A stretch of DNA of 64,000 nt. Origin: Vicinamibacterales bacterium. GTDB taxonomy: Bacteria > Acidobacteriota > Vicinamibacteria > Vicinamibacterales > UBA8438. How positions within the stretch are numbered: the stretch's first letter is position 1; the number at the start of each line of letters is the position of its first letter. Under the pieces are notes generated by a model. That model was not told the DNA's origin. It saw only the letters and a program-made list of their open reading frames with translations, and made no database searches. The stretch spans positions 2,336,157-2,400,156 of the forward strand of contig OZ244130.1 of assembly GCA_965215895.1 (NCBI GenBank), written 5' to 3'. Of this stretch, positions 20,783 through 50,775 are shown one piece after another. A program made the position numbers and the translations under genes.

Positions 20783-20857
20783 GGGCGCTTGGCTCAGTGG
20801 TAGAGCATCGCCTTCACACGGCGGGGGTCAGTGGTTCGAATCCACTAGCGCCCACCA
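20783..20857 (+). tRNA. tRNA-Val (anticodon CAC), CCA encoded
   Basis: The cloverleaf folds by hand: acceptor GGGCGCT/AGCGCCC, D arm GCTC-AGTGGTA-GAGC, anticodon stem TCGCC/GGCGG with loop TTCACAC, T arm AGTGG-TTCGAAT-CCACT, discriminator A, then CCA. Confidence 0.9.
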
Positions 20858-26324: not shown

Positions 26325-26328
26325 GCCT

Positions 26329-26880
26329 TTATGGCTCAACAACTTGCGGGAGCCGGTCTCCCGCCAGCCTACGATTCGTCCTACGTTGGCTACTTCTCAA
26401 CATGGGAACATTCGGGAACATTGCCGACAATCGTCGTTGTTGACGTGCACCATTCTGGCTGCTGTTGGTTTGCGGTTGCGTCCCGCAGCCGTCGGCTCTC
26501 GATCCCCGCTGGCCCGGGGCCTGACGCACGCGCGCGAGGCGTCGGCCCCAGAGACCGTGGACAGTCACGTCACCGAGGATCAGGATGGTGTCCGCGGGAG
26601 CGACCACCTGCTCCCAGTTCCGGAAGATCGTGTCGTTCATCTCGTCAGCCGTCCCGAAGGGTCGGCGGAAGGCTTCGATGGTTTTGGTGTGACCCAGGTG
26701 GAGGTCCGACCAGACCCATGTCCGGGCATGGTCGTGCCCGTACAGCCCCCCGGGAGTCATCCCCCGCGAGACACGCAGCATGCAGGACATCTCGCGTCGG
26801 TTGAAGTCCGGTGTTGGCGGGCACTTCAGCTCTTCCCGGAGCTGGGATTCGTAGAGTTCCTTGAGGGTCAGTGCATCCAT
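26329..26880 (-). pseudogene. Metallophosphoesterase, C-terminal half degenerate
   Basis: WVWSDLHLGHTKTIEAFRRPFGTADEMNDTIFRNWEQVVAPADTILILGDV matches the N-terminal motifs of small calcineurin-like phosphoesterases. No GNHD or later His motifs follow. The tail is R/Q/S-rich junk in every frame. Confidence 0.5.
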
Positions 26881-27067
26881 CGGCGATGACTGTCCATCGG
26901 GTGCCCCGGAGGGCCCCAAGCGGTGCCGTTGTTGAACGTGCATGCCCTTGCGGGCGCTCTCTTGGTGCAACCGCCGCTGCTGACGGTGCCGATCGAGGCC
27001 AGATCCAGCCGCCGCTTGCTGCGAGGCGCCGTGCCTCTCGCGCCACGGATCGGTGCGGCACTCGGCC

Positions 27068-27667
27068 TCAAGACGAGAAGACGTCGTCCAGGCGGAGTTC
27101 AAGGCCGGCGAGGAGCGGCGAGCGTAGCGTCTGTCCCCGGCTGAAGGTGTCGGTGGCTGCCAGTACGCCCCCGCGTTGGCGATGGATCGAGACGGTTTCG
27201 GCGATCGGGTCGACCAACCAGTACTCCGCCACCCCGTGTCTGTCGTAGAGTTCGCGCTTGGAGCCCCGGTCCTTGTCGGCGGTCGATGGAGACAAGATTT
27301 CGATCACGAGATCGGGCGCACCCCGCACCTTCTCGCCGTCGCTCAGCAGATGCTCGCGCTCCCGGGAGACGAACAGGAGGTCCGGCTGGACGACGTTGCT
27401 GTCGGACAGGAGCACGTCGCAGGGGGCTGTCAACAGCGTTCCCAAGGCCCGGCCCTCGATGAACAAGCCCAGTCGCGTTGTCAGCTTCACTTGCACCGTC
27501 TGGTGCTTGATGTTCGGGGCAGGGACCATGATAAGTTCGCCGCCCAGGAGTTCGTAGCGGTTGTCCGCCGGCGCGGCGCAGTAGTCCTCGTAGGTGAGCT
27601 TGACAGCGGGTTGCGCGGTAGCCACGTGGGTGCTCTCTTCCCTTGCCCGGATGGTCGCGGGGATCAT
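27068..27667 (-). CDS. Uma2-family (DUF820) endonuclease
   Basis: YELLGGELIMVPAPNIKHQ..., VVQPDLLFVS, GAPDLVIEILSPSTADKDRGSKRELYDRHGVAEYWLVDP is the PD-(D/E)xK Uma2 signature. Start at ATG 27667, or GTG 27625. Confidence 0.8.
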   Translation of the reverse strand: MIPATIRAREESTHVATAQPAVKLTYEDYCAAPADNRYELLGGELIMVPAPNIKHQTVQVKLTTRLGLFIEGRALGTLLTAPCDVLLSDSNVVQPDLLFVSREREHLLSDGEKVRGAPDLVIEILSPSTADKDRGSKRELYDRHGVAEYWLVDPIAETVSIHRQRGGVLAATDTFSRGQTLRSPLLAGLELRLDDVFSS

Positions 27668-27717
27668 GATAGCGCGTCTCGGCGCCGCTGTGGTCGTCCG
27701 TCGGGGTCGCTGGTGGG

Positions 27718-28369
27718 TCACCAGCGGAGCCGTTCGATCCACGTGTCGCCGTTCTCCGCGACGCGAACCTCGAAGCGGTTGATCCCGCACCTGAGCGAGC
27801 GGTACGCCGCGAGCCAGACGTGGAGCGCGTCCCGCAGGCGGCGGCCGCGGGCCTCGGGGGTCGCGTCGGGCATCCGGCGGATCGCGCCCTCGACCTGGTC
27901 GGTGGATGCGCCGACCCACAGGGCGTCGGCCATGAACGCGAGCGCGAAGCCGCCGGTCCGTCTCGACCCAACGAGGTCGCCCCGCGTCCCGACCGCGGTC
28001 ATCGCCATGGACATGTCGGTCTCAAGGGCCATGGCGCTGCCCGGCGTCAGGCTCAGCGCGCCGGTGCCGTAGCCGGTGACTCCCCAAACGGACACGCGGT
28101 CGTTGATGTGGTAGCCCGCCCAGGGGGTAGAAGCCGGTCATCGACGTTGTCATCTGCCCGGCGCTCGGGCCGCTGTAGCCACCGAGCCCCATGGTGCGGC
28201 CGACCGAGAGGCCGACGGTGAGCGGGCCTCGCCGGTAGTCGGCTCCGAGCATCGTCGTGCGCACGTCGCCGTTGAGCGACAGCGCGTTCTCGGTGTCGTC
28301 AGGGGTCAGTTTTGAGTGTCGCTTGACGCCGCGGGAGCGAGGCGGGAAAATAATGCATGACTGGAGCAC
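27718..28369 (-). pseudogene. Autotransporter beta-barrel domain remnant (frameshifted, truncated)
   Basis: Two overlapping ORFs in different frames read ...ALSLNGDVRTTMLGADYRRGPLTVGLSVG...GGYSGPSAG... and ...VWGVTGYGTGALSLTPGSAMALETDMSMAMTAVGTRGDLV...GFALAFMADALWV. No passenger domain is present. Confidence 0.45.
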
Positions 28370-29238
28370 GTATGCATAAGGACACAGAAACGTTTAAGAT
28401 TTCATCTCTTCAAGATGCAGAGGCTTTTGCGGCATACATCAGCCGCTACGGAGAGGCGACCTCCTCCTCTGGGCATGACATGCGCGGCCCCATTCTCAAC
28501 ATCTACAAATACTCGCGTGTCCATTCCAAAGATGATCGAATCAATGGCAAGCTATTGAATGCATATATCGATCTTGAATTGACTTGCTTGTTCATTATGA
28601 AGGACTCGCTATTGGCGGGAGGCATGCATAATCGACTGCACGATAAAGGCAAAACCACGTTGGGGTCAGTGCTAGATGACTTCGAACTATTCTCTGGGAA
28701 AGTGGATATTCTATATGTCTTGTCGGCTTGCTCTTTCAGAATGCGCGCTTTTTGGGATAAGTACATGGGAGTACTGTTTCTGCTTTATGAACACAAAAAT
28801 TATGATAAATACGTCGACGGACGACGCAGAAAGAACTTCTTTATGGGACGTGCCCGAGAGTGGCCGGGAATTTCGGTGCATCTCCGAAAGTGCCTAACGA
28901 ATATTGTAAGGACATCGCTCATACATTCGGGACAACGGGAAGCCGTGAGAGATATTGACAATCAGAACCTCTGTGTTCCGTTTCCGTATCCCTTTTTGAA
29001 AATACTAGACACAATAATCGCGATGGTGGACGCCGTCAGGACACACGAAGCACACGGCGCCGGGTTTTTGAGAAAGTGGACACTAGCTAACTTTCCGATA
29101 GACAAATCAAAAGATTTTGCCCTCATAAACCACTGGAATATAGGCAGCGCATTTATGCACGCGTTGCGGACGGAAATGGCCGCCCGACTCCGAGGGAGCA
29201 ACGGGGCTAGTCTTTCCAATGCCGACAATGAGTCCTGA
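28357..29238 (+). CDS. AT-rich orphan protein with C-terminal R-x4-H (HEPN-like) motif
   Basis: The 293-aa ORF fills an abrupt AT-rich block of about 0.9 kb. It looks helical. It has CSFRMRAFWDKYMGVLFLLY and MVDAVRTHEAHGAGF (R-x4-H followed by G). Confidence 0.6.
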   Translation: MTGARMHKDTETFKISSLQDAEAFAAYISRYGEATSSSGHDMRGPILNIYKYSRVHSKDDRINGKLLNAYIDLELTCLFIMKDSLLAGGMHNRLHDKGKTTLGSVLDDFELFSGKVDILYVLSACSFRMRAFWDKYMGVLFLLYEHKNYDKYVDGRRRKNFFMGRAREWPGISVHLRKCLTNIVRTSLIHSGQREAVRDIDNQNLCVPFPYPFLKILDTIIAMVDAVRTHEAHGAGFLRKWTLANFPIDKSKDFALINHWNIGSAFMHALRTEMAARLRGSNGASLSNADNES

Positions 29239-29406
29239 ACCTGGTCGGCCGCACTTGGCAGGCCTCTATCCGGTGCGAAACCGCCGGCCCCGCTGGCCAC
29301 GGCGGGACACTGTGAGGGGACCGGCCCGCGCGCCGTCGCCGGAACCGCGGCGGGCGGCGGCGCAGAGAGTCTCCGCGGGCTCCATGTTGCGATCCACTGA
29401 CGCTCC

Positions 29407-30133
29407 TCATGTCCGGTTCTTGTTTAGCGCGAGCAAGTGGCGGAGCGCGTTGTCATCTGTGATGTCCGTTGGCCACCCGTAGGCCGCGGCCACCGCAGCA
29501 TCGAGTGTTGCGTGTGCGTCGGCGAGCCACTGCGGGCGGGCGTTGTAGAGGTTCGTCAGCGTGCGCTTCCTGAGCGCCTTCGTGGCGTCCTCGTCACGGG
29601 GAACCGGCCGTCGCGGGTATCCCTGAACCGGCTCCTCCACCCACTCGACCCATTCTGGCGGGTTGAGCCACCGATCCCGCAGGTCGACGAGCCGTTGGGC
29701 GGCCTCGGCCACGGCGATCGCCCGGGGGTCGTCAGCGTACTCGGCGGCTCGCACGTTCGGCGTCAGACCGGGCGGGAACGGGAACGTCTCGAAGGTCGTG
29801 CTCGGCGTGTACCGCGGGTCGTTGCCCTTGCCGAGCCACGTGCCACGCCGGAGAGACCAGATCTCGTGAAACCTGCTGTGGAGGATGCCGAAGGTCGTGT
29901 CGTCGTCGCGCGCGATCGCGATCAGTTGATGATCGGGGCAGATGCGGGCGTCGCACCAGACGAACAGTCGGTGCTTGGCGACGGTTGGCGTTGCGATGAA
30001 GCGTGACAAGGTGTCGAGCGCCTGACGCATCTCGGGATATGGCCGAGAATGTCGCCACCAGTGCTTGCGACGGGGTTTGCTTCGATGGCCGCGAGGCGTA
30101 TCCATGAAGACTTGGTAGACGCGTTCCCGCACC
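29407..30133 (-). pseudogene. MmeI-like class I SAM-dependent DNA methyltransferase, 3' fragment (target-recognition region)
   Basis: ...HWWRHSRPYPEMRQALDTLSRFIATPTVAKHRLFVWCDARICPDHQLIAIARDDDTTFGILHSRFHEIWSLRRGTWLGKGNDPRYTPSTTFETFPFP...LTNLYNARPQWLADAHATLDAAVAAAYGW. It continues the 31407-32865 reading frame across the IS. Confidence 0.75.
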
Positions 30134-31406
30134 ACTAGTGTCCCACATTTTCAGGACCACGCCAGCGACAATTGGGAGCCAGAGGGGGCCGGTAGCGACG
30201 GCGTCGTGAACAGGTCCTGGAGTGGCCGACGTTCAAACATGTTGAGCTGGAGCACCTGCAGCATCTGGTGAAGGCTCCAGCGCAACCGCATGACGAACTT
30301 CAGGTACGCCAACAGCAGGTACATGCACATCGCCACCCACAGCTGCGTCATGACGGCGTTCTTCGACCGGCCCACGAAGCGCTTCACTTTCAGATGCTGC
30401 TTGATCCACTTGAAAAACAGCTCGATCTGCCACCGCGATTTGTATATATCCGCAATCGTCTGGGCCACCCACGTTGTGTTGTTGGTCACGAACACATAAC
30501 GGTTCTTCGTCACCGGATCCTGGTAGGCCACTCGCCGCAGCGGCGCGGCATACGCCTTCCGGCTGCGAGCGCTGGTCAGCTCGATCGTCTGATCGCTGAG
30601 GACGCCGGTTCCGGGTCGGATGTCATGCTCGCGCGTGACCCGATATCGCACGCCCCGCTTCAGGCGCGTCACGAAGGTCACGCCCCGCGCCTGCAACTGA
30701 TGGAACCACTTGAAGTCAAGATACGCGCGGTCCGCCACGACCACGCTGCCGGCTGGAAACGTCCAGGTGCGGGCGGCCTTGACGTCGCCGGTCTTGCCCT
30801 CGGTCACACTGACGAAGCTCGGCAGATGGCCCGCCTGATCCAGCCCGATGTGCAGCTTGATCGCGGCCTTCGTGCGTCGAAAAGACGCCCACGGGAAGAC
30901 CGCCAGACACAAATCGATGGTCGTCGCATCGACCGCGTACAACTTGTTCTTGAACCGAAAGCCGTGCCTCGGCGCGCACTGCTGACAGCGGCTCAGCAGG
31001 CGTCCGAACAGCGTCTCGTAGAGAGTGTACGGCTGCTCGGCATTGACGCGCGCCAGCGACGAGCGACTGACCGTCGTCCCTACGCCCAAGTGATAGAGCT
31101 TGCGCCCTTGGGTGCTCAGGTTGCTCACGATGTCACGCAAGCTCTGTCGGCCCGTCAGTTGCGCCAAGCCAAGGGCCACGAACTGCGCCCAGCGGCTCAT
31201 GACGCGCAACCCCTGACCTCGCTGGTGTTGGCGGGCCTCGGCTTCGAATTCATGTCTCGGAAGGAACCTGAGAAGCTGCACGAAGACTGTGTTATGATGA
31301 GCCACGGCTTGGATCTCCTGTCTTTTGAATGATTTGCGCCACAGATCATTCTACCAGACATGGAAGGTTCAAGCCGCCTTCATTTGAAGGTCTGTGGGAC
31401 AGCAGT
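30134..31406 (-). mobile_element. IS4-family insertion sequence (1273 bp) with 11-bp target-site duplication
   Basis: Terminal inverted repeats are ACTAGTGTCCCACA (30134-) and ACTGCTGTCCCACA (reverse complement of -31406). The direct repeat GTTCCCGCACC lies at 30123-30133 and 31407-31417. Confidence 0.85.
30151..31305 (-). CDS. IS4-family DDE transposase
   Basis: 384 aa with a DUF4372-type N-terminus (MAHHNTVFVQLLRFLPRHEFEAEARQH...SRWAQFVALGLAQLTGRQSLRDIV) and a DDE region (VVADRAYLDFKWFHQL, YKSRWQIELFFKWIKQHL). Confidence 0.9.
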   Translation of the reverse strand: MAHHNTVFVQLLRFLPRHEFEAEARQHQRGQGLRVMSRWAQFVALGLAQLTGRQSLRDIVSNLSTQGRKLYHLGVGTTVSRSSLARVNAEQPYTLYETLFGRLLSRCQQCAPRHGFRFKNKLYAVDATTIDLCLAVFPWASFRRTKAAIKLHIGLDQAGHLPSFVSVTEGKTGDVKAARTWTFPAGSVVVADRAYLDFKWFHQLQARGVTFVTRLKRGVRYRVTREHDIRPGTGVLSDQTIELTSARSRKAYAAPLRRVAYQDPVTKNRYVFVTNNTTWVAQTIADIYKSRWQIELFFKWIKQHLKVKRFVGRSKNAVMTQLWVAMCMYLLLAYLKFVMRLRWSLHQMLQVLQLNMFERRPLQDLFTTPSLPAPSGSQLSLAWS

Positions 31407-32865
31407 GTTCCCGCACCCACCGGAACGGCTCTTCGTACAGCGCGGCGGCGTTCTCTGACATCGTCCACCCGAAGTCGACGATCCACTTCCCAGCTGGTCG
31501 CCGGGTCATGTCCATCCCGTTCACCCAAGGCTTCAACACGTCGGCGTTGGTTCGACTGTTCGGATTCGCCGGCAGGCGGAGCCACTCTCGCGCCTGGTCG
31601 CCCGCAACGTCGAACGGTCCGCCCTTCTCGTCGCCTCTGAAGGCGACGTCGACGTTCTCCTGGAGACGTTGGACCCCAGTGAGGTCGACACCGACGTCGC
31701 CGCGACGCGCCGTCAGGTCCGTGTGGATCTCGTCGGCGGGCTGGCCATCGAGTCGGACTTCAGACACCCAGGCGTCGTCGGCTCGTCCGAAGCAGATCAG
31801 TGAGACCCTGACGGCCGCGCCGTCGATCACCCAGGGCTCGTCGCTCCACGGCTCGAAGATCGGCTGGCCGTTGACCGCAGCCTGCAGAGCGCGCCGGTTC
31901 GCGCCGCCCCGAATCGAATTCGTGGTGACCAGCCCAGCTCGCAGGGCCTGGCCCAAAGCGAGCTGCCGCCCCGCCTTTTCAAACCAGTAGCAGACGAGAT
32001 CGGCTGCTCCCGATACGCGCCCGGCGTAGACGGAGCACATCCGTGACACGTAGTCCTCGCCGAGAGTGGCGATCAGACGGTTACCGCCAACAAACGGCGG
32101 GTTGCCGATCACGACGTCGGCCGCCGGCCACTCCGGCTCGAGGTCGTCCGGCGTCAGGATTGCGTCCCGGTACTCGATGGTGTCGAGGGGCTTCAGGATC
32201 GGGTCTCGCGCTTCCCCGAAGCCGTTGCGCCGCATCCACTGGATCTCGCCGATCCAGACCGACACGCGCGCGAGCTCCGCGGCGTAGGGGTTGATCTCGA
32301 TGCCCTTGACGTTGGCCGGGCCGATCTCCGGGAATGCCCGCTGGAAGCCCCCCAACGCCTCGGCCTCGAGCTGAACGCGATGCTCGAGGTCTTTGAATGC
32401 CTGCAGGGCCAGGTACAGGAAGTTGCCCGAGCCGCACGCCGGGTCGAGCACCGAGAACCCCCGTAGACGGTTGAGGAACGCCCGGTACCGCCGTTCGGCC
32501 TCGTTCAGCCGCTTCGTGCGGGCGGGGCGGGACCTGGCGGCTTCGGCTCGTTCCAGCTCGGCGGTGATCTCGGTCTTCTCGGCGTCCCATTCGGCGAGCA
32601 GCGGCCTGACGACCACGGGCTCAACGAGCAGCATGATCTTGTCCCGGTCGGTGTAGTGCGCGCCGAGCTGGGCGCGCTTGTTCGGATCGAGGCCCCGCTC
32701 GAACAGCGTGCCGAGGATCGACGGGTCGATGTCGGACCAGTCGAGGTCCGACGCCGCCAGCACCGTCTCGATGTCGGTCCTCTCCAACGGCAATGTGGTG
32801 GCGTCGGCGCTCGGGCTGAGGCTTGGCTCTCTTGAGCCTGGGATCTGGTTTTCTGGTGTTAACAA
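31407..32865 (-). pseudogene. MmeI-like DNA methyltransferase, 5' fragment (N6-adenine methylase core), itself N-terminally truncated
   Basis: ILGTLFERGLDPNKRAQLGAHYTDRDKIMLLVEP, motif I (VLDPACGSGNFLY), IEINPYAAELARVSVWIGEIQW, motif IV (VIGNPPFVGG). The usual N-terminal nuclease/helical region of about 200 aa is absent. Confidence 0.75.
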
Positions 32866-32879
32866 CTTGGCTAAACGGT

Positions 32880-33073
32880 TTTCTTGCTTCCATCTGCGAT
32901 GAACCTCGTGCGGGAAAACACGAACTTGTGTTCCCAGCGGCTCTCTTGTAGATGACCTCGACGGCGTCCGTTTCGAACCACTGTACGGTCAGCAGGGTGA
33001 CGCACTCGCCGGGTGCGACTCGCTCGATGGTTCGGCTTGGCTTGAGGTCTTCGAGCCGGGTTGCCGTCGTCAT
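32880..33073 (-). pseudogene. N-terminal stump of a helicase-like gene (tentative)
   Basis: MTTATRLEDLKPSRTIERVAPGECVTLLTVQWFETDAVEVIYKRAAG... then the frame is lost. The pattern resembles N-termini of large restriction/defence-associated helicases as I remember them. Confidence 0.25.
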
Positions 33074-33189
33074 GGGGCGGTATTGTCCCACGTCTGCCGT
33101 CCGATGGTGGGGTCGGTGCCCGGCTTGTTGGCGGGCTGGTCTCAGCGCCTCGGCTGTGCCGTTCGCTGTCTCGATCCTTTCTTGGCCGG

Positions 33190-33450
33190 TCAATCAGCAT
33201 TCCCGGTGCCAGGCGGGGCCGGTTCCTCGGTCCCGATCGTCATCGAGATTCCCAGAGCCTTGCATAGCTCGTCGGCGCGGTCGATGGTCGGCCTGTATCC
33301 TCTCCGCAGTGCGCGGAAGGCGTCTGCGGGCAGCCGGGCCTCTCTTGCGATCTCTTGGCCGTTGACGCCCCGTTTCGTTAGCTCGCTTTCGATGATCTTG
33401 ATCAGGCGGTCGGTCGCGGATCTGTGGAGCTTCCTGCTTTTTGCGGTCAA
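33190..33450 (-). CDS. XRE/Cro-type helix-turn-helix regulator
   Basis: 86 aa with GVNGQEIAREARLPADAFRALRRGYRPTIDRADELCKALGISM. Confidence 0.6.
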   Translation of the reverse strand: MTAKSRKLHRSATDRLIKIIESELTKRGVNGQEIAREARLPADAFRALRRGYRPTIDRADELCKALGISMTIGTEEPAPPGTGNAD

Positions 33451-33629
33451 TTCGGTTTCCTCCCCTCTGTTGCGTCCCTTGGTGCTCGGCAGCGTGAGGC
33501 TGCTGCTCTGTGCTGGTCTCCGCAGGGGTCCCGGCGGTTCTGTTTAGGCGGGCTCGTCCCCGGTCGAGTTCGCCCCTCTCTGTCTGTGCTTCTTCTGTAC
33601 CTACGTGTGCCACGCTTGCCGACTGAACC

Positions 33630-33658
33630 TTGCACCTTTCAGTGCTATGTGGTAGATT
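33630..33658 (+). promoter_or_regulatory. Sigma-70-like promoter for the 33711 gene
   Basis: TTGCAC (33630-33635), a 17-nt spacer, then TGG-TAGATT (extended -10, 33653-33658), about 50 nt upstream of ATG 33711. Confidence 0.4.
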
Positions 33659-33710
33659 CACCGGGTGCGAACGCCCGGTAACAGTTCCAGGCTTTTGGGA
33701 GGGTGCCGGA

Positions 33711-34511
33711 ATGGGGGATCTTGGAGCCGTAATCTCGTCGGTTCGCGATCGGCTTGCAGTCGTGGCGCGTCGCCGCGAGGAGCTTGAGCGACAGTGTGCG
33801 GATGTTGAGCGTGAGTACGCTCGTCTGGCTGCGGCGGTCTCCGTCTTCGAGGAGCACGCCGAGCAGCCTGTTCAGCCTTCGTTTTCGGACGCGGTTGCGG
33901 ACCCGCCGCCTCTCACTGCGCGCGTCTTCGATGCGTTGCTGGGTTCTTCGGTGAACAGCCGTTCTGATCTGCTCAGACTGTTCCGCCCGGTCGGCGTCAA
34001 TGAGAATTCCCTTGATTCGGCGATCCAGCGCCTGAAGCAGCGTGGCACCATCCAGCAGCGAGGGAAGTACCTTGTTCCCGGGATCCAGACGCCGCTCTCG
34101 GCTTCATCTCCTCCGTCTCCTGACGATCCCGGTGGGTCGGATGTTGATCGGCGTTCTTCCGATCCTCATCCTGTCGGTGTTGAGGCTGGTCCTGACCAAG
34201 GTCCTCTTCCGGGGTCTGTGTCGCTTTCCGAGGACGTGCGTGGCGCCGGAGCTCCGCCGCGACGCTTGTCTCCTCGCCGCATTCCACTTACGGTTCGCGT
34301 TCAGGAAGCGGTGGCTACTTCGGTCGCCTGTACCCGCGCCGCCCTGGTCAAGCATTTTGCTCTCCAGGGGATTAAAGAAGCTGCGGTTGATACAGCGTTG
34401 TCCGGTCTCAGGAAGCGCGGCAAGCTTGAGAGACGGGACGGCCGTGTGCTAGCTGTGCCTGGTTCCGACGTTCCGTCTGCTGCGGCGGGCGCGGCGCTTC
34501 AGGACTCGTGA
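33711..34511 (+). CDS. Hypothetical protein with N-terminal coiled coil and two related winged-helix-like segments
   Basis: ATG 33711 in ORF 33630..34511. There is an internal repeat: ...LDSAIQRLKQRGTIQQRGKYLVP versus ...VDTALSGLRKRGKLERRDGRVLAVP. Codon usage is rich in T-ending codons, unlike the backbone. Confidence 0.55.
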   Translation: MGDLGAVISSVRDRLAVVARRREELERQCADVEREYARLAAAVSVFEEHAEQPVQPSFSDAVADPPPLTARVFDALLGSSVNSRSDLLRLFRPVGVNENSLDSAIQRLKQRGTIQQRGKYLVPGIQTPLSASSPPSPDDPGGSDVDRRSSDPHPVGVEAGPDQGPLPGSVSLSEDVRGAGAPPRRLSPRRIPLTVRVQEAVATSVACTRAALVKHFALQGIKEAAVDTALSGLRKRGKLERRDGRVLAVPGSDVPSAAAGAALQDS

Positions 34512-34514
34512 GAG

Positions 34515-35177
34515 CTACCGGTGGTCGCTTTTGGTTTTCCGCGTCGACTCCGTGTTGTCCAAACCTCTGATCAGGGCGCCGACGGCCACGCCCTCGATCA
34601 CCAGGATGTGTTTCGCCAGGTCGATTTTCATGACCGCGTGCGTGGTGTTGTGGCTCTCGGGCCGCAACTCGACGTGTCGATCGTCGATCCGGGCGAACCG
34701 TTTCAGCGTTACGTCGTCGCCGAACCGGGCGACCACGATCTGACCGGTCTTGGCCTCGGGTGTTTTTTGGACGGCTACGATGTCTCCGTCTTGTACGACG
34801 CGTTCCATGCTGTCGCCGCGCACGGTCAGCAGGTAGTCCGGTCGCGGTCGGAACTGCTCGGCGATCGCCCTGGGCACCCGCTCGATGGTGTGGGCGTCGC
34901 ACACGATTGGCGTTCCCGCGGCGACTTCCGCCAGAGCGCTGATCAGTGGAATGTCGTCCTCGAGGATCAGGATGCCCCGGTTTTTCTTCGGCAGGATCTT
35001 GATCCTGCCGTGTCTGGCGAGGGCCTTCAGATGTCCGATGACAGACGAGGCGTCGGAGAGCCCGAGTCCGTGGGCGATCTCGGTTCGCGTCGGCGGGACG
35101 CCGCAGCGTCGGATGTGGTTCTTGATCCAGTCCAGAACCTCCTCTTGTCGATCCGTGGGGTGTTGCATGGGGCTCAC
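34515..35177 (-). CDS. LexA/CI-type S24 repressor (mobile-element copy)
   Basis: wHTH (RQEEVLDWIKNHIRRCGVPPTRTEIAHGLGLSDASSVIGHLKALARHGRI), Ala-Gly cleavage site (EVAAGTP), catalytic Ser (VRGDSM) and Lys (VTLKRF). Confidence 0.85.
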   Translation of the reverse strand: MSPMQHPTDRQEEVLDWIKNHIRRCGVPPTRTEIAHGLGLSDASSVIGHLKALARHGRIKILPKKNRGILILEDDIPLISALAEVAAGTPIVCDAHTIERVPRAIAEQFRPRPDYLLTVRGDSMERVVQDGDIVAVQKTPEAKTGQIVVARFGDDVTLKRFARIDDRHVELRPESHNTTHAVMKIDLAKHILVIEGVAVGALIRGLDNTESTRKTKSDHR

Positions 35178-35428
35178 TCCTCTCGTTGCTCGTCGCTCGA
35201 GCTGCGAGATTCACGCGAAACACCTGCGCCTGTCAGCGTTCCTGTGTGTGCTCTGGGTTGTTCCGATTACCGTCTATAAAAAGGCGAAGAAAAAGTGTAA
35301 CAGGCACCCATAGTTGAAGTATAGTCACCGGGTTGGCGACTGGGTTCCCGAGAGGTTCTAGGTTCGTTGCGGGTCTGACGGCGGTGGTTGACGTGCCTCG
35401 GGAGTGCGTCGCTTGGTCGTCGGAAGGG

Positions 35429-35463
35429 AGCACCGGGAGCGGCACAGTGCCGCTCCCGGTGCT
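35429..35463. repeat. Perfect 17-bp inverted repeat (palindrome)
   Basis: AGCACCGGGAGCGGCAC-A-GTGCCGCTCCCGGTGCT lies in the divergent region between the LexA-like gene and the integrase remnant. No T-tract follows. Confidence 0.8.
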
Positions 35464-35626
35464 GGTACAACCAGAGCTCGGCGGTTGTGGTGAACCGTAC
35501 CGAGCAGAGAGCGCTGCCGGGAGACCCAACTCACGCTATCCAGACGAGATTCTGCCGTTTTTGCCGGGTTCCGTCAAGGTTTCGTGAGCTTGGGCTCTCC
35601 CGCCGCGGTGCGTGGAGGGTCGGGCC

Positions 35627-36868
35627 ATGTCCCCTTGGAGTGAATCGACTGAAAATCAATCCCGTCAAGTTCGCCGCCGTCGGCGGTATCTCCTGACCGA
35701 CCGTCAGTGTCAGACGCTTGGGCCTGGTCGGTATTCTGATGGCGGCTGTCTGCTGCTCTACGTTCGTCCATCCGGCTCCCGGAGTTGGTTTGTCCGGACC
35801 TTCGTTCATGGAACGCGCAGCGATATTGGGCTAAGGTCCGTACCCGCTCATTTCGTTGGCGGCAGCGCGTGGCTTCGCGGACTCGATCCGACTGACTGCT
35901 CGCCAGGGCGGTGATCCTCGTAAATCTGCGTCGACTCCGGTCTCGTTGGCACCGACCGTTCGGGAGGCTGTTGACTTCGTCCTTGAGGACCAGGGCAAGA
36001 ACTGGACGGCTGCAGACGCGGAGGTTCGGTACCGCGCTAGTCTCGACGCATACGTTCTTCCAGTGCTTGATCCCAAGCGAGTGGACGAGCTCACAGTCGA
36101 CGATTGCTTCAACGTCGTTTCCCCTCACTGGTCGGGGCGCGGGTCTGTCGGTCATCGGGTGCGGCATCAACTGGTTCACATTCTGCGCTGGGCGATCCGC
36201 AATAATCACCGCAATGACAATCCTGCCCAGCAGGTTGTCGACCGGCTTCCGAGGGTGAGGTCCCGGCCGGAGAACCAGCCTAGCTTGCCGTACAGCCAGA
36301 TTCGGGCGGCGCTCGCGGCGCTTGAGGCTGCGTCCGTGCCGCATGTGTTCAAGTTGGCGATCCCCTTCCTCGTGCTCACAGCGGTTCGCCTTCGTGAGGC
36401 TACGGAGGCACGGTGGTCGGAGGTCGATCTTCAGGCCAAGCTCTGGACCATTCCCAAGCATCGTATGAAGAAAAGGAAAGAGCATCGCGTGCCATTGTCG
36501 CGCCAAGTCTTGAGCATTCTTGCGGATGCTCGTGACGCCTGATCCGTCGGGTTCTCTGGTGTTCGGGTACCGCGTCGGCCGACAACGACCTCGCGCTCTG
36601 CAATCGCCTGACGTATCGGCGGTCTTGCATGGTCTCAAGTTCACGGATTCTGCCGGTCGTCCCATCGTGGCGCATGGGTTCCGAAGCACGTTTGCGGAAT
36701 GGGTAGGCGACCACTACGACGAAAAAACCGCTGCAATCGAAGCTGCTTTGGCGCACCGGCCGGGGCACGTCCACAGCCAGATCGTACCGACGCAACGACC
36801 TGCTCAAAGCTAGGCGTCCGCTCATGCAGCACTGGGCGGACTACGTTTTCCCGGGGGATTGGTCCTGA
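35627..36868 (+). pseudogene. P4-type tyrosine integrase, at least three frameshifts
   Basis: DUF4102-like N-terminus (LTDRQCQTLGPGRYSDGGCLLLYVRPSGSRSWFVRTFVHG) is in frame 2. The core (VLTAVRLREATEARWSEVDL...HRVPLS) is in frame 3. VAHGFRSTFAEWV is in frame 1. The C-terminal ...YRRNDLLKARRPLMQHWADYVF is in frame 2 again. Confidence 0.8.
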
Positions 36869-36941
36869 TGTTCGTAGTTGTAGCTTGGTCCTACGTTTGG
36901 TCCTACCGATTGGTTCGGAAGTAGGTCCCACTATTTGTCCT
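36859..36941 (+). repeat. Iteron-like direct repeats TTGGTCCT(A/G)
   Basis: TTGGTCCTGATG at 36859, TTGGTCCTACG at 36885, TTGGTCCTACC at 36897, a weak TTGGTTCG at 36910, TAGGTCCCACT at 36922, and TTTGTCCTGATA at 36934. The last five are about 12-13 nt apart. Confidence 0.7.
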
Positions 36942-37509
36942 GATACTCGTGTTTCCCAAGGGGTTCCAGGTTTCACGTCCGATTTTTTAAGTCCTTTTGT
37001 TTCAGTGGTTTAAGCTCGCGGCCTTGGCCGCGCTTGCTCTAGCTGTGCCCGTTGCCGCTCGGAATGGAATCGGTGTTCGCCGCCGATGGCCCGGTCGTGG
37101 ACTGCGGCTACAGCGGCATTCCCTCAGTGGCGCAGGTCGCGATCGATCGCTCGGACGCCAAGATCACCATCAGGAGAATCCAAGTGTCCGCGTGCACGGT
37201 CCATGCCGAATGGCGCCTCGTTGAGCCGGTAGCTACAACCTGACTCCCCGGGGTGAGCAGCTACGCTCCTCCCATCGGATGACGGTGAAATCGAGATCCG
37301 CCGCCACTTGTACGTAAGTGGCATTGCTTACACCGCCCGCCAATTCTCCGATCGGGACTGACGGAGCGCGGCCCAAATAGATGGATACACTCTACTGAAG
37401 CCACCCTTGTACTACTTGCCAAAGATCAATATTACTCCTGCGCCGATAGGTGAGGTCTGGGCGCGCGTTGCTTGTCTGCATCCACCACAAGAAGGGGTCT
37501 GCATCGGGA

Positions 37510-38709
37510 TTAACTCTCTTGTGTTCTCGCCACAACCCTCAACACTTCTCGTTTGAACTCGGCCTTGAGCATAATTTTGGTTCTCTTCCTCTCTCTGTCT
37601 CTCGTTACCCATTGGTCAATATGAACCAGCCTGTCTTCCAATGCTGCCATGTCTGTTGCGATCACCAGAAAGGCTTGGAGTACCTTCACGAGCCTACGCT
37701 TAGCTTTGGTAAATCGTCGCTCAACGTTGGGCATTTGACGGAGCACTGTTATAAAACCTGAGACTCCGTCTCTCGCCGACTCTCCCCCCTGCGAGAGTTG
37801 GTGCACGTCGTCCAGTGCTGTTCTCCGTGCGGCCTTGTCCACATCCGGGTGAAAAAAGTACGTTCGCATGGCGTTGGAGGACGTGTCCCAAACGGCACGG
37901 AACCGTACGACTAAGCCGTCGATGATACCGCCCTTTTCGTCGAGGAACGCACCGAATCGCTGAAGAAGAGCCGTCAGCCCGCGTACGTCCTTCCGCTTCG
38001 CGAACACCTCGACCTGTGGGGTGAGAGAATTTGCCTTTTCTCCTAGAGCAACTATTTCAGTGCTAATGGCCTCGAGTATTTTCTTGCCATCCTCGGAACT
38101 ATCTGTTATCTGGACTGCCAGGTCAAGTGTGCCTGGTCCATCTTCATCGGAATTTCGCTCGGAGCCTTCCGTCGGCTCTGGTTCTCTTAATGGTTCCCGT
38201 CCCTCTGCTTCATCGTCGCTGTTTCCATCGTCATCTTCTTCACCGCGGTCATCGGATCTCCTGCTATCGGTACGACCATTCGGCTCGGGTTGCGGCCAAA
38301 AGTCAGAAACGGGACTGCCGAAGGCTATTGTTCCATCGGTATCGGTTGCTATCTCTACAAGACGTCTCTTGGCGTAGTCAAAGTTGCTACCCCTGGGCTC
38401 GTATCCGATTATGTTGTAAGATCGCAAGTTGAACGGGGCATTTGCCAAGTCTTGCGACAGCAAGACGACATCCTTGCCCTTTGCATGAGCGATCCCCAAC
38501 TCGTAGAAGACGTTGGCATTCAGGCCGGAGAGATCAGCGACAATGAGGTCAGCATCATGTATACCAACGACAATGCTCTTTATGATGTTCTGTTGACTGG
38601 TAATATCATCTGCACGCACAATGTCGTACCCGGCATCTTCAAACGGGGGCCTGATCATGTCATCGTATACCCAATCGAATGCCTTCTCGAAAGGCATCAC
38701 AACGAACAC
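37510..38709 (-). CDS. AT-rich orphan protein: nucleoside 2-deoxyribosyltransferase/TIR-like N-domain + acidic linker + unknown helical C-domain
   Basis: 399-aa ORF (GTG 38709; the likely real start is the MPF four codons in). N-terminus: MPFEKAFDWVYDDMIRPPFEDAGYDIVRADDI...GIHDADLIVADLSGLNANVFYELGIAHAKGKDVVLL. Linker: DDRGEEDDDGNSDDEAEGREPLREPEPTEGSERNSDEDG. Confidence 0.65.
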   Translation of the reverse strand: MFVVMPFEKAFDWVYDDMIRPPFEDAGYDIVRADDITSQQNIIKSIVVGIHDADLIVADLSGLNANVFYELGIAHAKGKDVVLLSQDLANAPFNLRSYNIIGYEPRGSNFDYAKRRLVEIATDTDGTIAFGSPVSDFWPQPEPNGRTDSRRSDDRGEEDDDGNSDDEAEGREPLREPEPTEGSERNSDEDGPGTLDLAVQITDSSEDGKKILEAISTEIVALGEKANSLTPQVEVFAKRKDVRGLTALLQRFGAFLDEKGGIIDGLVVRFRAVWDTSSNAMRTYFFHPDVDKAARRTALDDVHQLSQGGESARDGVSGFITVLRQMPNVERRFTKAKRRLVKVLQAFLVIATDMAALEDRLVHIDQWVTRDRERKRTKIMLKAEFKREVLRVVARTQES

Positions 38710-39110
38710 TTTTTTTGGTGTTTGCCATGGAAGGTTCCTTGGGTCCTTTATTGCTACCTCTTAGAGGCGCCTTGTCGAAGAACGACCACTTCAATTTGAA
38801 GGGAGCCAGCGGGAACCTCGGGTTGCTCCTTCGTCACTTGTCGCTTTGGCTGGCAGGGCGCGTTGGGATCGTCGCAGCGAACAGGGTGGCGACTGGCAGG
38901 AGCAAGTAGAGGCCCGAGCGGGGCATAGTCACTGGGGTTCCCGCGTAGTTTGGGGCCGGCCACACGGACAAGCAAGGTAAGCGGCATGGGTACTGTGGAA
39001 GCGGGAACCCTTCATCGCAGGGCGAAGATAACACGAATAGGCGGGATCGTCAAGGGCGGGGGAGGAAGGGGCGATGGCGGATGAAGCGGCTGGGGACTGG
39101 TGGTTGTCGA

Positions 39111-39850: not shown

Positions 39851-40294
39851 CTACGATGAAAGGGGCTTATCGTCTGCATCCCGTTCTGGGTAGGGCTCGG
39901 GTTCCAGAACGGCGTTATCTTTCCCGATCGCCTGCCGGCGTGCTGCCGGGGCGTGCTCGACACCGGCACGGCCGGCGGGGGGGTGGTGCCAATGGTCCTG
40001 ACCCTGCTGGTGTCCCTTCGGCGGCGGTTCGATGCTGCTGACGTCCGCTGAGGCACGTGCCAGATCGAGGTCGTACATCCGCTGCAGGTTCAACCAGAAC
40101 TCGGGTGTCGTTCCAAGGGCCCGCCCGACTCGCAACGCCGTGTGCGCCGTGACGGATCGGCGGCCGTGCACGATCTCGTTGATGCGCCGCGGAGGTACGC
40201 CGATGGCCCGAGCCAGACGGTACTGGCTGATTCCGAGCTCGGTCAGCATCTCGGCGAGGTGTTCACCGGGATGGATGGGAGTGATGTGGGTCAT
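39851..40294 (-). CDS. higA: HigA-family antitoxin (XRE HTH)
   Basis: MTHITPIHPGEHLAEMLTELGISQYRLARAIGVPPRRINEIVHGRRSVTAHTALRVGRALGTTPEFWLNLQRMYDLDLA is canonical HigA. The C-terminal tail of about 60 aa is unusual and may not be native. Confidence 0.8.
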   Translation of the reverse strand: MTHITPIHPGEHLAEMLTELGISQYRLARAIGVPPRRINEIVHGRRSVTAHTALRVGRALGTTPEFWLNLQRMYDLDLARASADVSSIEPPPKGHQQGQDHWHHPPAGRAGVEHAPAARRQAIGKDNAVLEPEPYPERDADDKPLSS

Positions 40295-47373: not shown

Positions 47374-49031
47374 GGCTGCTCCACGGCCGCGGGGTCCCAG
47401 CGCAGGTAGAGAGGCACGGTGACGAGGAGATGGGCGCGGCCCCGCAGCCCGCCGCCCTCGCTCGCATCCGGCGGCCAGGTCGCCACGACCCAGACGTCGC
47501 CGACGTTGTTCCGGCTGCCGCTGCGCTCGACGTTCGGCCCGTCGACGGCTGGAATGAACAGCCCGCCGGGCTCGATGGCCCCCACGTAGCGGATGTCGTC
47601 GTCCCCGATGGTCACGGCGTACTCCTCGATCGACCACCGGGCGTCGACCATCCCCAGGTCCAGGTCGTCGTCGGTCGCCGGCTCGCCGTCCGGCCCGTTG
47701 TGCAAGGCCCGCGCCTCGAACTGCCGGAACTGCTTGGGGAAGCGGATCCCGCCGACCCGGGCCATGCCCGCTCTCGGGGTCACCTCGATGCGGTGCACCT
47801 CGTCATAGACGGTGACGGCGCCGGTCGCCGCGGTCTGATCGAGGACCAGATCGCGGCCGCCGGTGGCCGCGTCCGCGTCGACCCGCACCTGCACGTCCAG
47901 CCAGTCGCCGGTCGTCCCCGTCACCTCCAGCACCGAGACGCCGGGGCCGAGGTCGATGGAGTCGGCCGACGCGGCGAGGTTCCGGCCATGGACCCGGATC
48001 GTCGCGGTGGCGCCGGCCGCGAGCGACGGGGGATGCGCCCCGGCCACCGCCGGGGCCCCGGCGAGGCGCTCCAGGGTGACGTCGATCCCGGTCTCGTCGT
48101 AGCCGCCGGCGAACCACCGGCCCCGTATCGTGCGCCAGCCGCGCTCGACGAACATCACCTCGCGGAACTCGTCTTCGCTCGGGTCGCCGGGAATGGACCG
48201 GCCCCGCCACTGGAAGCCGGTATAGATGATGGCGCGGCCGGTGCGCTCGACCTGCCGGCCGGTGTGCGCGTAGGTGTACGTCGCCTCGGTCGTGAACTCG
48301 TCCTCGGAGCCGGCCACGGGGGTGATCGTCACGCTTCCGTAGACCGCGCCGCGGCCCTGCGCGTGTCCGCGCAGCAGCCACGTGCCGCCGACGCGGGGGG
48401 GCCGCATGGTCGCCGACCACGCCGACCACGCCGTGGTGTCGAACGGAAACCGCTCCGAGAGGTGGGCCACCGCCCGGTCGACCGCCTGCGGCTCGCCGTC
48501 GCCGGGGTTGCCGCGTCTGAAGGACTGGAAGTCGGTGAACGGGTAGTAGCCGCGATGCATCGCCATCAGCAGCGACCATTCCTCCTCGGTCCGTCGCTGG
48601 CTGATCACGCGCCCCATCGAGTGGCACTGCGTGCAGGTCTCTTCGATGTCCGCATCGTCGTAGGGCTGGTCGTCGCTGCGGCGCTCCGCCTCCCAGGCGG
48701 CGGCGTGCGCCTCGGCCGGGGCGAGGCCCAGGGTGTTCGCGAGAGTGCGCACGACGTCGCGGGCCGTCTCCGGGGTCAGGGGCACGTCGTTCAGGGTGAC
48801 CATGCGGCGGATGGTCTGCTGCCACCCCTCGGGCGTCGTGCGCCGGAACGAGATGCGCGACAGACGGCCCGCGTCGTCGGGGCGGTGGCACGAGCCGCAG
48901 GCCTCCAGCACCGTCTCGTCGTCGATGGGGATGCCCGGGCCGCCGGACTCGGCCGGCTGGGCGCTGGCGCCGGCCGTCACGAGCAGTGCGACGAGCGACG
49001 CGACGAGGAGCTTCGGACGGGGCAGTGGCAT
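47370..49031 (-). CDS. qhpA: Quinohemoprotein amine dehydrogenase alpha subunit (diheme)
   Basis: Signal peptide (MPLPRPKLLVASLVALLVTAGASA), two CxxCH sites (CGSCH, CTQCH), then about 400 aa of beta-rich domains. ATGA overlap with qhpD. Confidence 0.8.
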   Translation of the reverse strand: MPLPRPKLLVASLVALLVTAGASAQPAESGGPGIPIDDETVLEACGSCHRPDDAGRLSRISFRRTTPEGWQQTIRRMVTLNDVPLTPETARDVVRTLANTLGLAPAEAHAAAWEAERRSDDQPYDDADIEETCTQCHSMGRVISQRRTEEEWSLLMAMHRGYYPFTDFQSFRRGNPGDGEPQAVDRAVAHLSERFPFDTTAWSAWSATMRPPRVGGTWLLRGHAQGRGAVYGSVTITPVAGSEDEFTTEATYTYAHTGRQVERTGRAIIYTGFQWRGRSIPGDPSEDEFREVMFVERGWRTIRGRWFAGGYDETGIDVTLERLAGAPAVAGAHPPSLAAGATATIRVHGRNLAASADSIDLGPGVSVLEVTGTTGDWLDVQVRVDADAATGGRDLVLDQTAATGAVTVYDEVHRIEVTPRAGMARVGGIRFPKQFRQFEARALHNGPDGEPATDDDLDLGMVDARWSIEEYAVTIGDDDIRYVGAIEPGGLFIPAVDGPNVERSGSRNNVGDVWVVATWPPDASEGGGLRGRAHLLVTVPLYLRWDPAAVEQP

Positions 49032-49323
49032 CGGTCGACTCCGTTGAACGGCCCTTTGTAGCACATACCGCAGCGTCTGTCAGCTTCGCCGTGAGCGTCG
49101 TGCTGCCGCAAACGCACGTGACCCATCTGCTCGGCAAGTGTGCGGCGTCGGCTTCGGCGAGGGTGAAGCCAGTGGCGGAAGACCCGAGACGTGACCCCTC
49201 ACCCGCACCGTGGTGTCGAGCCGGCCCGCTGCGCGGCGGTGCGGTCCGGCCCGCTTCCCGCACTCGCGGGTGGTCAGCTCCCCGCCGGCACCCTGATGTA
49301 CGCTCTATGGTGGGAGCCGAATC

Positions 49324-49680
49324 GTGCTGACAACGGATCAGTTGCGCGCGTTGATCACCGATCGGGAGTCCGACCGCGTCGAGCTCACGATCTCGACGAC
49401 GAATACGGACAAGTTCGGCGAGGCGATCTGCGCCTTCGCCAACGACTTTCCCAATCACCGGCAGCCGGGGCACCTCATCGTCGGAGTCGGTGACGACGGA
49501 ACCGTCAGCGGTCTCACCGTCAACGACCAATTGCTGCGGAGACTTGGGGAGTTGCGCTCGAACGTCAACATCGAACCGCTTCCGGTCATGACCGTTCAGA
49601 GGTACGCCTTGCCCGAGGGCGAGGTGGCGGTGATCGAAGTCCTGCCATCGGAAACGGTAATCCGGAGGCGACATTCACGT
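49324..49680 (+). pseudogene. AlbA_2/Schlafen-type DNA-binding domain protein, N-terminal fragment
   Basis: LTTDQLRALITDRESDRVELTISTTNTDKFGEAICAFANDFPNHRQPGHLIVGVGDDGTVSGL...AVIEVLPSE. After this the frame degenerates and runs into the next gene. Confidence 0.5.
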
Positions 49681-49720
49681 TCGAGCCCTCCCATGTGCTG
49701 GCGACCATTCGGAGGGTGCC

Positions 49721-50730
49721 ATGAAGACGATCGCCTTCTTCAACAACAAGGGAGGAGTCGGCAAGACTACGCTGGTGTACCACTTGGCCTGGATGTACGC
49801 GGAGCTCGGATGTTCGGTGGTTGCCGCGGACCTCGACCCGCAGGCGAAGCTGAGCGCCGTGTTCCTCGATGAGGAACGGCTCGAACGATTGTGGCCTGAC
49901 GGCACGCATCACGACAGCATTCTCGGTGCGGTATCACCTATCCTGCGTGGTCTCGGGGACATCAGGGCGCCACATGTCGAGCAGATCGCCGACAACCTGG
50001 GCCTGGTCGTCGGCGATCTCGGATTGTCCAGCTTTGAGGCAAAGCTGTCCTCGGCGTGGCCGGACTGCCTGGGACGCGACGAGTCGGCGTTTCGCACCGA
50101 GTCCGCATTCCATCGGACCATTCTGAGAGCTGCAGAGGAGCAGAAGGCCGACTTGGCGTTGATCGACGTCGGTCCCAATCTCGGCGCCATCAACCGAGCG
50201 GCAATTATTGCGGCGAATTTCGTCGTCTTTCCGCTAGCCCCGGATCTGTTCTCCCTCCAGGCCCTCCGGAACGTCGGCCCGACCCTCCGCGAGTGGCGCA
50301 ACGAATGGCGGGATCGCCTGGAGCGCCGTCCGGAGGTTGAGCAGCTTGAGCTGCCGTTGGCCGATATCGTGCCGGGCGGCTATATCGTGATGCAGCACGC
50401 GGTGCGCGCGGGTCGTCCAGTTCAGGCGTACCAAAAGTGGATCGAGCGGATTCCGGACGTGTATCGCAGACAGGTAGTGCCTGACAAGCCGCCTGATGTG
50501 CATGGTGGCACAGGTTGCTCAACTGAAGACGACGAGGAGTGCCTTGCTACACTCAAGCACTACCGCAGCCTCTCATGGCCATGGCGCATGAGGCCCGCAA
50601 GCCGATGTTCCATCTGAAGGCAGCCGACGGCGCGCTTGGCGGTCACATCTACGCCGTGCAAGATTGCTACAGGGATTTCGAAAGGCTTGCGAAGGCAATA
50701 GCTGAGAAGTGTGGCGTGTGCATCAGCTGA
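49721..50730 (+). pseudogene. ParA/MinD-like ATPase with a frameshift near 50573-50575
   Basis: Deviant Walker A (FFNNKGGVGKTTLVYHLA). ORF 49721..50617 ends ...LATLKHYRSL, then junk. ORF 50539..50730 continues MAMAHEARKPMFHLKAADGALGGHIYAVQDCYRDFERLAKAIAEKCG in the adjacent frame. This is consistent with a 1-nt indel, or with a sequencing error. Confidence 0.6.
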
Positions 50731-50775
50731 AGGGATCCGTCTGGAAGAGTCTCACCCCGTCGATCTGGTTCAGGT

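Follow-up and report, generated by a model that had tools for sequence, protein, structure and literature searches.

We analysed a 64,000-nucleotide stretch of contig OZ244130.1 from a Vicinamibacterales bacterium (the window), and in particular one gene on its minus strand that an initial annotation, made from the letters alone, had singled out as a foreign, stand-alone candidate conflict gene. The reported open reading frame (ORF) spans 37510..38709, starts with GTG and encodes 399 amino acids; gene callers start instead at the ATG at 38697, which gives a 395-aa protein. This ORF covers only the middle of a broken gene of 444 codons, of which it is the longest intact piece. Judged by sequence, its product belongs to a large uncharacterised family, in which a predicted enzymatic head of the NDT/TIR superfamily (NDT, nucleoside 2-deoxyribosyltransferase) is joined through an acidic linker to a bundle of four helices.

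The gene and its two frameshifts

Deleting one A (38710) and one G (37536) restores a 1335-nt ORF of 444 codons plus stop (37392..38728, minus strand), which aligns without a gap to P0003 (444 aa) at 76.6% identity. P0003 and P0004, both 444 aa long and 75% identical, are the gene's nearest relatives; they begin with MANTKKVFVMM and carry a 47-aa C-terminal tail, ...LWRQHKESSPDADAFSWW...DLWQVVQGWLQ. The first frameshift (+1) lies in an A7 homopolymer (38710..38716) that parts the native start, MANTKK, from the gene body: the relative has AAGAAA where the window has A7, and the reported ORF restarts at the GTG right after the run. The site reads ACCAAAAAAAGTG in the window and in two further assemblies, L001 and L090, and ACC-AAGAAAGTG in L091. 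Six nucleotides upstream of the native ATG (38726-38728) a Shine-Dalgarno-like AAGGAA can be read on the same strand (38735..38740); L091 keeps a similar AAAGGAAG and the start ATG GCA AAC ACC. The second frameshift (+1) is a GGG run (37536..37538) in place of GG, on which the window, L001 and L090 again agree, with TGA-GGTTG in L091. Beyond it the ORF terminates as VVARTQES*, and the 47-aa C-terminal tail is left as an out-of-frame remnant, LWREHKRVNPDADPFLWWMQTSNARPDLTYRRRSNIDLWQVVQGWLQ (37392..37535, minus strand), homologous to the tails of P0003 and P0004. The ratio of nonsynonymous to synonymous substitution rates (dN/dS) of this displaced tail against L091 is 0.09, and it was therefore under selection until recently.

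The two frameshifts contradict the intactness that the initial annotation had implied. Since the native start, the Shine-Dalgarno site and the conserved tail have been lost, the window copy is probably switched off or decaying. The GTG or the ATG could still allow the body to be translated, though not from the native ribosome-binding site; that the A7 tract might revert by slippage is speculation. We considered whether both frameshifts are homopolymer errors of assembly and the genome truly has an intact 444-aa gene. Such errors would fit the nature of the two changes, which are single-base insertions within runs (A7 and G3), the long-read style contig names of the three assemblies, which look like one project, and the out-of-frame tail, which has no stop codon and the low dN/dS given above. 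However, three separate assemblies, made from different samples and in one case at 52x coverage, share both insertions, and errors of this kind do not typically arise in a G run of only 3 bases. Moreover, the third assembly, L090, bears an independent disruption of the gene by an insertion sequence (IS), which argues that gene decay is real in the population. An assembly artefact is thus unlikely, and we think that the frameshifts, both of them common to the window, L001 and L090, are real.

The gene is of foreign origin and was recently acquired by horizontal transfer, in agreement with the composition noted initially: the GC content of the ORF is 0.52 and that of its third codon positions (GC3) 0.56, compared with a GC3 of 0.91-0.92 in host genes of the same window. 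The AT-rich block in which the gene had been placed is also there, with a GC content of 0.537 at 37066-38760 against 0.685 over the whole window, except that its left edge is the junction of an insertion (37065/37066; see below). Searches around the gene for repeats and for promoter-like and terminator-like sites gave nothing beyond chance, and no flanking inverted or direct repeats bound a cassette around it. At E<=1e-3, 550 homologous proteins match, and in a comparison with the nearest intact relative the head has a dN/dS of 0.055, the linker one of 0.31 and the tail domain one of 0.20. Because of these homologues and the low dN/dS, the ORF is a genuine coding sequence and not a chance one; to call it an orphan was mistaken, the more so as a profile of its tail finds 3,490 clusters of proteins.

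Domain architecture of the encoded protein

We built an AlphaFold2 model of the protein on 74 homologues (mean predicted local distance difference test score, pLDDT, 85.6; predicted TM-score, pTM, 0.70), and residues are numbered below as in the 395-aa protein. The head (38293..38709, minus strand; ~139 aa) was assigned by Pfam, PADLOC, AlphaFold2 and Foldseek and is modelled as a beta-alpha Rossmannoid domain at about residues 1-120. When it was searched against the PDB with Foldseek, the matches were a cyanobacterial NDT, the CMP N-glycosidase BcmB, human DNPH1, rat Rcl and the TIR domain of SARM1. Entries 8pqq, 4jen, 7o62, 8os9 and 4fyk were matched at probabilities of 0.98-1.0 with target TM-scores of 0.44-0.63; the SARM1 TIR domain (6o0u; probability 0.99, target TM-score 0.52) ranked under the NDT and DNPH1 matches. 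The Pfam family PF05014 (Nuc_deoxyrib_tr) matches all 74 family members at E<=0.01 (best 1.5e-8), and the PADLOC model PDLC00733, a 'TIR effector' of CBASS, matches the window protein at E 1.8e-8 and likewise 74 of 74 members, with a best E of 1e-14. TIR_2 (PF13676) had no match to the window protein at E<=10 and weakly matches 8 of the 74 members (best E 0.0027). NCBIfam gave no match, and the whole protein searched against PDB sequences yielded just weak DNPH1 matches (E ~1).

The sequence N-A-N-V-F-Y-E-L-G (38494..38520, minus strand) contains the predicted catalytic Glu, encoded by the GAG codon at 38500-38502 and identified by its invariance and by alignment to DNPH1. Residues N62, V63, Y65, E66, G68, P88 and F89 are invariant in 74 sequences, and the Glu of NVFYELG is aligned with that of GVGYELG in DNPH1/Rcl. 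In the model, the head takes an NDT/DNPH1/TIR-like fold, and its predicted catalytic Glu is invariant. The initial annotation had proposed an NDT/TIR-like head with a Glu at the position of the NDT nucleophile, and had quoted the motifs MPF, IVADLSG and NANVFYELGIAHAKGK. All three motifs are present. The proposal is borne out for the fold, as the structure prediction and Foldseek search of the N-terminal domain indicate, and for the active-site motif, whose Glu falls on the DNPH1 nucleophile; strict membership of the Pfam family is narrowly missed.

The linker (38134..38292, minus strand; ~53-56 aa) is acidic and of low complexity, as had been described: of its 55 residues, 38% are Asp or Glu, and it is modelled as disordered, with pLDDT <50 at residues 139-184. 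Family members have linkers of 21 to 56 aa, and that of the window copy is the longest.

The tail (37539..38133, minus strand), the hallmark of the family by model, motifs and profile, is predicted to be an antiparallel four-helix bundle of ~200 aa. Its four long helices, at residues 190-234, 238-282, 288-321 and 327-394, are modelled with pLDDT >90, and the tail modelled alone with AlphaFold2 reached a pLDDT of 94.5 and a pTM of 0.83. Two motifs are found family-wide, GxLD at the start of the bundle and PxxERxxNRA at the turn between helices 3 and 4. The earlier impression of an all-helical tail that falls in no known family was upheld, in that neither profile nor Foldseek searches gave a specific relative. 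The tail profile run against PDB sequences retrieved designed coiled coils, heptad repeats of viral spikes and chemoreceptors, a generic heptad similarity, and the Foldseek matches of the tail in the PDB and BFVD (ClyA-like proteins, CorA, Sec6 and 14-3-3) were non-specific, with TM-scores below ~0.45.

The ClyA-like matches raise an alternative, namely that the tail itself is a membrane-active effector and the head merely regulatory. The matches are weak ones to the alpha-pore-forming toxins NheA, HBL-B, AhlB and SmhB, and a few relatives have a hydrophobic N-terminal helix in place of the enzyme head. However, the TM-scores are just 0.2-0.34, with root-mean-square deviations >17 A, the tail is highly charged and has no hydrophobic segment, and the head retains its invariant catalytic Glu under strong purifying selection (dN/dS 0.055). 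We therefore regard a membrane-active effector tail as extremely unlikely.

A family with a constant tail and variable heads

The 582 genomic relatives that we collected are spread over Acidobacteriota, Chloroflexota, Proteobacteria, Firmicutes and other phyla. Proteins with the complete architecture were found in Acidobacteriota, Chloroflexota (many of them Dehalococcoidia), Proteobacteria, Chlorobiota, Nitrospirota, Clostridia and others, with a patchy distribution over the phyla. At E<=1e-3 an exhaustive search with the tail profile returned 3,490 representative clusters, of which 1,928 also pass E<=1e-10; most of the matched proteins are 340-390 aa long, the tail occupying about residues 170-360. 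Among the top 150, 135 proteins were newly returned; the head motif N-x-x-Y-E-x-G is present in 94 of these, and the remainder are mostly fragments.

Some relatives carry a different head on the same tail. In P0164, P0231 and P0243, whose tails match at E ~1e-33 to 1e-40, TIR_2 is found at 46, 45 and 37 bits, respectively (Pfam cut-off 28), and these TIR heads are similar to the ThsB_TIR model. When the NDT-like heads were aligned with the TIR heads by hhalign, the match was non-significant (E 0.07), with the catalytic Glu residues in register. Because the alignment is non-significant, we read the occurrence of both heads on one tail as a swap between two clades of the TIR-DrHyd-SLOG assemblage (PMC9503650). 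A sensor-effector protein would be expected to show just this pattern, in which predicted nucleotide-cleaving heads are exchanged on an unchanging tail.

Other arrangements were seen at the margins of the family. P0216, a distant relative of 512 aa, has an HTH_3 domain fused ahead of the NDT-like head. P0124 (579 aa), a match to the tail profile, consists of two zinc ribbons followed by two tandem four-helix bundles and has no enzymatic head. Sequenced phages and plasmids gave no full-length homologue, only the head domain, which on plasmids is fused to TPR or 'TRAFs-binding' regions. IMG/VR contains 81 relatives of the head domain, one of which (L123) is near full length. Literature searches returned no paper that describes this architecture.

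Neighbours of homologous loci

To compare gene neighbourhoods, neighbours at 26 full-length genomic loci were clustered by BLASTP at E 1e-5 with a coverage filter and then at E 1e-3 without it. No partner gene is conserved in the 26 loci, and no neighbour cluster spans more than four of them, which upholds the view that the gene stands alone. One neighbour alone recurs, an MmeI-type type IIG restriction-modification enzyme of ~950-1030 aa that is directly adjacent to the family gene in four loci (L011, L013, L030 and L036) at a distance of 114-640 nt. Among 141 neighbouring ORFs, the top Pfam families were MmeI_Mtase (4), N6_Mtase (3), MethyltransfD12 (3), N6_N4_Mtase (2), ResIII (2) and HSDR_N (2), and PADLOC found components of type I, II, IIG and III restriction-modification systems as well as PD-Lambda-5_B. 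The neighbourhoods of the homologues, like that of the window gene, are thus rich in mobile elements and restriction-modification genes. At the P0006 locus, for instance, HsdR, an AAA_15/21 ATPase, transposases and an integrase lie beside the gene, and the Paucibacter homologue has ThsB_TIR, a TPR-S/trypsin protein and a TIR protein of 1023 aa around it. PADLOC gave 12 'mad2' hits among the neighbours; these are most likely generic methyltransferase domains and not a partner, with no cluster in more than four loci.

The neighbours include no CD-NTase, and Pfam scans of the protein and its 74 family members revealed no SAVED, STING or other sensor domain. A ThsA-type effector neither recurs in the 26 loci nor occurs in the window. 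No reverse-transcriptase domain was present in any neighbour scanned, and there is no retron or other RNA near the gene, Rfam giving only a tRNA-Val over the 64 kb. An antitoxin or immunity gene conserved across the 26 loci was likewise absent among the neighbours, as was a recurrent secretion gene.

An insertion hotspot at the locus

The sister assembly L001, 99.9% identical, has an identical copy of the gene and lacks positions 26305-37065 of the window: its sequence follows the window from 46568 to 37066 and resumes at 26304, continuing to 22160, and the two parts overlap by 11 nt. The right junction of this 10.76-kb insertion is marked by one copy of the 11-nt direct repeat GGA(A/G)TCGGTGT (37066..37076), and the other copy is at 26294-26304. 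The gene sits 445 bp from the right end of the element. A P4-type integrase, broken into three frames (35612-36813), had been named as a dead integrase in the gene's neighbourhood. It is indeed broken, but it belongs to the inserted element and the gene lies outside, because L001 has the gene without the insert; the gene is not cargo of the integrase element.

The element also carries a LexA-like S24 repressor (34515-35177), a winged-helix protein and an MmeI-type type IIG restriction-modification gene in two pieces (29407-30135 and 31369-32865; PADLOC PDLC03627, E 6e-145 and 6e-70 for the pieces), split by an IS4-family transposase with DDE_Tnp_1 and DUF4372 domains (30151-31305). Its lowest-GC kilobase (28357-29238; GC 0.537) contains a 293-aa ORF with no Pfam or PADLOC match, which we take as foreign cargo. 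On the far side of the element lies a type II N6/N4 DNA methyltransferase (24784-25701; PADLOC E 1e-94). In L001 the gene converges on this type II methyltransferase, and after it come two small ORFs, one of 114 aa and one of 116 aa (L001 9326-10901). The latter, into which the 10.76-kb element was inserted, has a weak match to a type II restriction enzyme (E 2e-5). The ancestral neighbour of the gene is a type II restriction-modification system, which is convergent with it and looks degraded.

In the third assembly, L090 (99.96% identical), an ISAZ013-family transposase (L090 11000-12292) lies inside the gene at about window 37699-37703; the insertion gives rise to a 371-aa database protein, P0002, with an unrelated C-terminus. 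Because the 10.76-kb element and an IS have entered the same site among near-identical assemblies, the site is a hotspot, in which no defence-type gene has escaped damage.

Upstream of the gene, the degraded toxin-antitoxin-like cassettes proposed initially are in fact one solitary HigA-like HTH_3 gene (39851-40294; 147 aa) on the same minus strand, 1.1 kb away and with host-like GC; there is no room for a toxin gene. The HTH_3-head fusion in P0216 hints at a possible regulatory link to it.

A few further features of the window were recorded. Over about 24-39 kb the GC content is 0.53-0.65 versus 0.68-0.75, which suggests an older, larger island around the hotspot, and a second dip (0.64) is found at 49000-51000, around a ParA-like ATPase gene (49721-50617). 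The tRNA-Val(CAC) at 20783-20857 is the only tRNA gene. By its translations alone, an ORF pair at 56983-59447 looks like a PadR regulator and a duplicated FtsX-type permease, a pairing typical of Acidobacteriota.

Discussion

As a whole, the observations are best explained, in our modestly confident judgement, by a frameshifted 444-codon stand-alone gene whose family is a one-protein conflict system of the abortive-infection type with an NAD+/nucleotide N-glycosidase head. The role in defence and the enzymatic activity are what we infer from fold, active site and context. In this scheme the helical bundle, held on a flexible acidic tether, would sense a trigger, keep the head inactive, or both. 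On activation the bundle would probably drive oligomerisation, and the head would then hydrolyse the N-glycosidic bond of NAD+ or another nucleotide and so deplete it. Depletion would lead to growth arrest and thereby block phage replication.

Several points weigh against this scheme. The Pfam match of the window protein to PF05014 (E 9.4e-6, 26.2 bits) is below the gathering cut-off of 28.8, and the Foldseek E-values of the head are weak, 1e-2 to 0.6, despite probabilities of ~1. Temperate phages of Staphylococcus and Streptococcus have the head domain on its own, and in them it may serve nucleotide metabolism or counter-defence; in phage SA13 its gene is on the reverse strand within the replication module. 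PADLOC 2023 has no model that covers the whole protein. Two of the loci lie among ordinary metabolic genes without a defence neighbour, and the enrichment of restriction-modification neighbours, given as raw counts, is no more than suggestive.

The head has close structural counterparts in metabolism. NDT, DNPH1 (Rcl) and BcmB/MilB share its fold and have the nucleophile Glu at the same place in (Y/F)E(L/I)G, and the protein could accordingly be a housekeeping enzyme of nucleoside or nucleotide salvage (a true NDT, or one like DNPH1 or LOG) that oligomerises through a coiled-coil domain. That NDT, BcmB and DNPH1 are the best matches in both sequence and fold speaks for this, as do the NCBI name of one homologue, 'nucleoside 2-deoxyribosyltransferase', and the loci situated amid metabolic genes. 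However, the metabolic enzymes are single-domain proteins of ~120-160 aa in salvage or antibiotic pathways, whereas the window protein has an added linker and a 200-aa bundle, a foreign composition and a defence-island context. A GC3 of 0.56 in a genome at ~0.91 is also at odds with housekeeping, as is a gene that is present, absent or disrupted among near-identical strains. Furthermore, the family is patchy over phyla, TIR heads substitute on the same tail, restriction-modification genes and mobile elements often adjoin, and no salvage genes are linked in the loci examined. A salvage role is therefore quite unlikely.

The abortive-infection scheme has its closest parallels in immune proteins with related heads, the TIR-DrHyd-SLOG clade being a precedent for NDT-like and TIR-like heads as immune effectors (PMC9503650). 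The effector of retron Ec86 is NDT-like, with catalytic E106, is antiphage, and depletes nucleotides or adenine derivatives (bioRxiv 10.1101/2023.08.16.553469). The type II retrons Ec86/Eco1 and Sen2 have an NDT-like N-glycosidase head with a catalytic Glu, as predicted for the window protein. Unlike them, the window gene has no reverse transcriptase (neighbours scanned) and no retron noncoding RNA (Rfam, 64 kb), and its second domain is a four-helix bundle rather than a DNA-binding lobe. Swarozyc is a single-gene DUF4062 TIR-like NADase with helical stalks, in which a C-terminal portal-sensing module triggers NAD+ depletion (bioRxiv 10.64898/2026.05.01.722283). It resembles our protein in being one polypeptide with a catalytic Glu in its head, which in Swarozyc is TIR-like. 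By contrast, the window protein does not match DUF4062 at E<=10, this domain is absent from the list of top families of the 74 members, and Swarozyc has a stalk and a winged-helix AUX domain in place of the four-helix-bundle tail. DSR1 and DSR2 are single-gene SIR2 NADases in which an NAD+-consuming head is joined to a sensor that binds a phage protein (PMC10973363, PMC11850899). Their logic of head and sensor in one polypeptide is the one proposed here, but their head belongs to the SIR2 superfamily, and their sensor is far larger and of a different kind. The TIR effectors of CBASS and Pycsar (Cap12-type, PDLC00733) are the best match to the head in the defence library; in contrast to those systems, neither a CD-NTase nor a cyclase was found among the neighbours here, and the protein has no match to a SAVED or STING sensor domain.

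The resemblance to Thoeris raises a further alternative. The protein could be a ThsB-like signal generator: on sensing infection it would produce a nucleotide that signals to an effector whose gene lies elsewhere in the genome. The ThsB_TIR model also matches the TIR-headed relatives, signals of the cyclic ADP-ribose type can be products of TIR and DrHyd enzymes (PMC9503650), and other TIR genes are present at the Paucibacter locus. No ThsA-like or other effector, however, is linked to the family gene or recurs next to it in the 26 loci, and a systematic survey of TIR signalling set stand-alone TIR proteins aside on purpose, as likely NAD+ depleters (bioRxiv 10.64898/2025.12.03.692087). This renders a signal generator quite improbable in our estimation.

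A conflict other than phage defence could also have shaped the gene, which would then encode a toxin of mobile-element addiction or of inter-bacterial competition. It is a foreign gene in a hotspot full of mobile DNA, with a solitary antitoxin-like HTH_3 gene 1.1 kb upstream, and an HTH_3 domain is fused ahead of the head in P0216. Yet the neighbours show neither a recurrent secretion gene nor an antitoxin or immunity gene that is conserved. No cognate antitoxin is tightly linked in the window, since the nearest candidate, the HTH_3 gene, is 1.1 kb off, has host-like GC and is not conserved at other loci. We consider such a toxin very unlikely.

A broader proposal can be entertained, tentatively and with more doubt than confidence. 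The tail would be a new, widespread infection-sensing and regulatory module that licenses interchangeable NDT-like and TIR heads. The proteins that carry it would form a single-protein antiviral family of >3,000 clusters absent from PADLOC 2023, and in this lineage the A7 tract just after the start could, in addition, be a reversible phase switch of a costly gene.

The structural reading of the initial annotation was largely right. The gene it described as an orphan, and implicitly took to be intact, is, on the other hand, a recently disabled copy from a large family. The 395-aa database protein is a truncated reading of this frameshifted gene, and the labels 'nucleoside 2-deoxyribosyltransferase' or 'hypothetical' that annotation gives to family members probably mislead.

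The locus is a clear case of defence-gene turnover, with four states of one site within one population: the gene beside a type II restriction-modification system, a 10.8-kb element beside the gene, an IS within it, and the two common frameshifts. The family itself makes a good candidate for a hitherto undescribed variant among the single-protein defences that are known to deplete nucleotides. Should it prove immune, the natural swaps between NDT-like and TIR heads would offer a direct test of whether two enzyme clades are functionally equivalent. If it is immune, a compact and very widespread single-protein design, with a small, purely helical sensor, would join the defences that deplete NAD+ or nucleotides.

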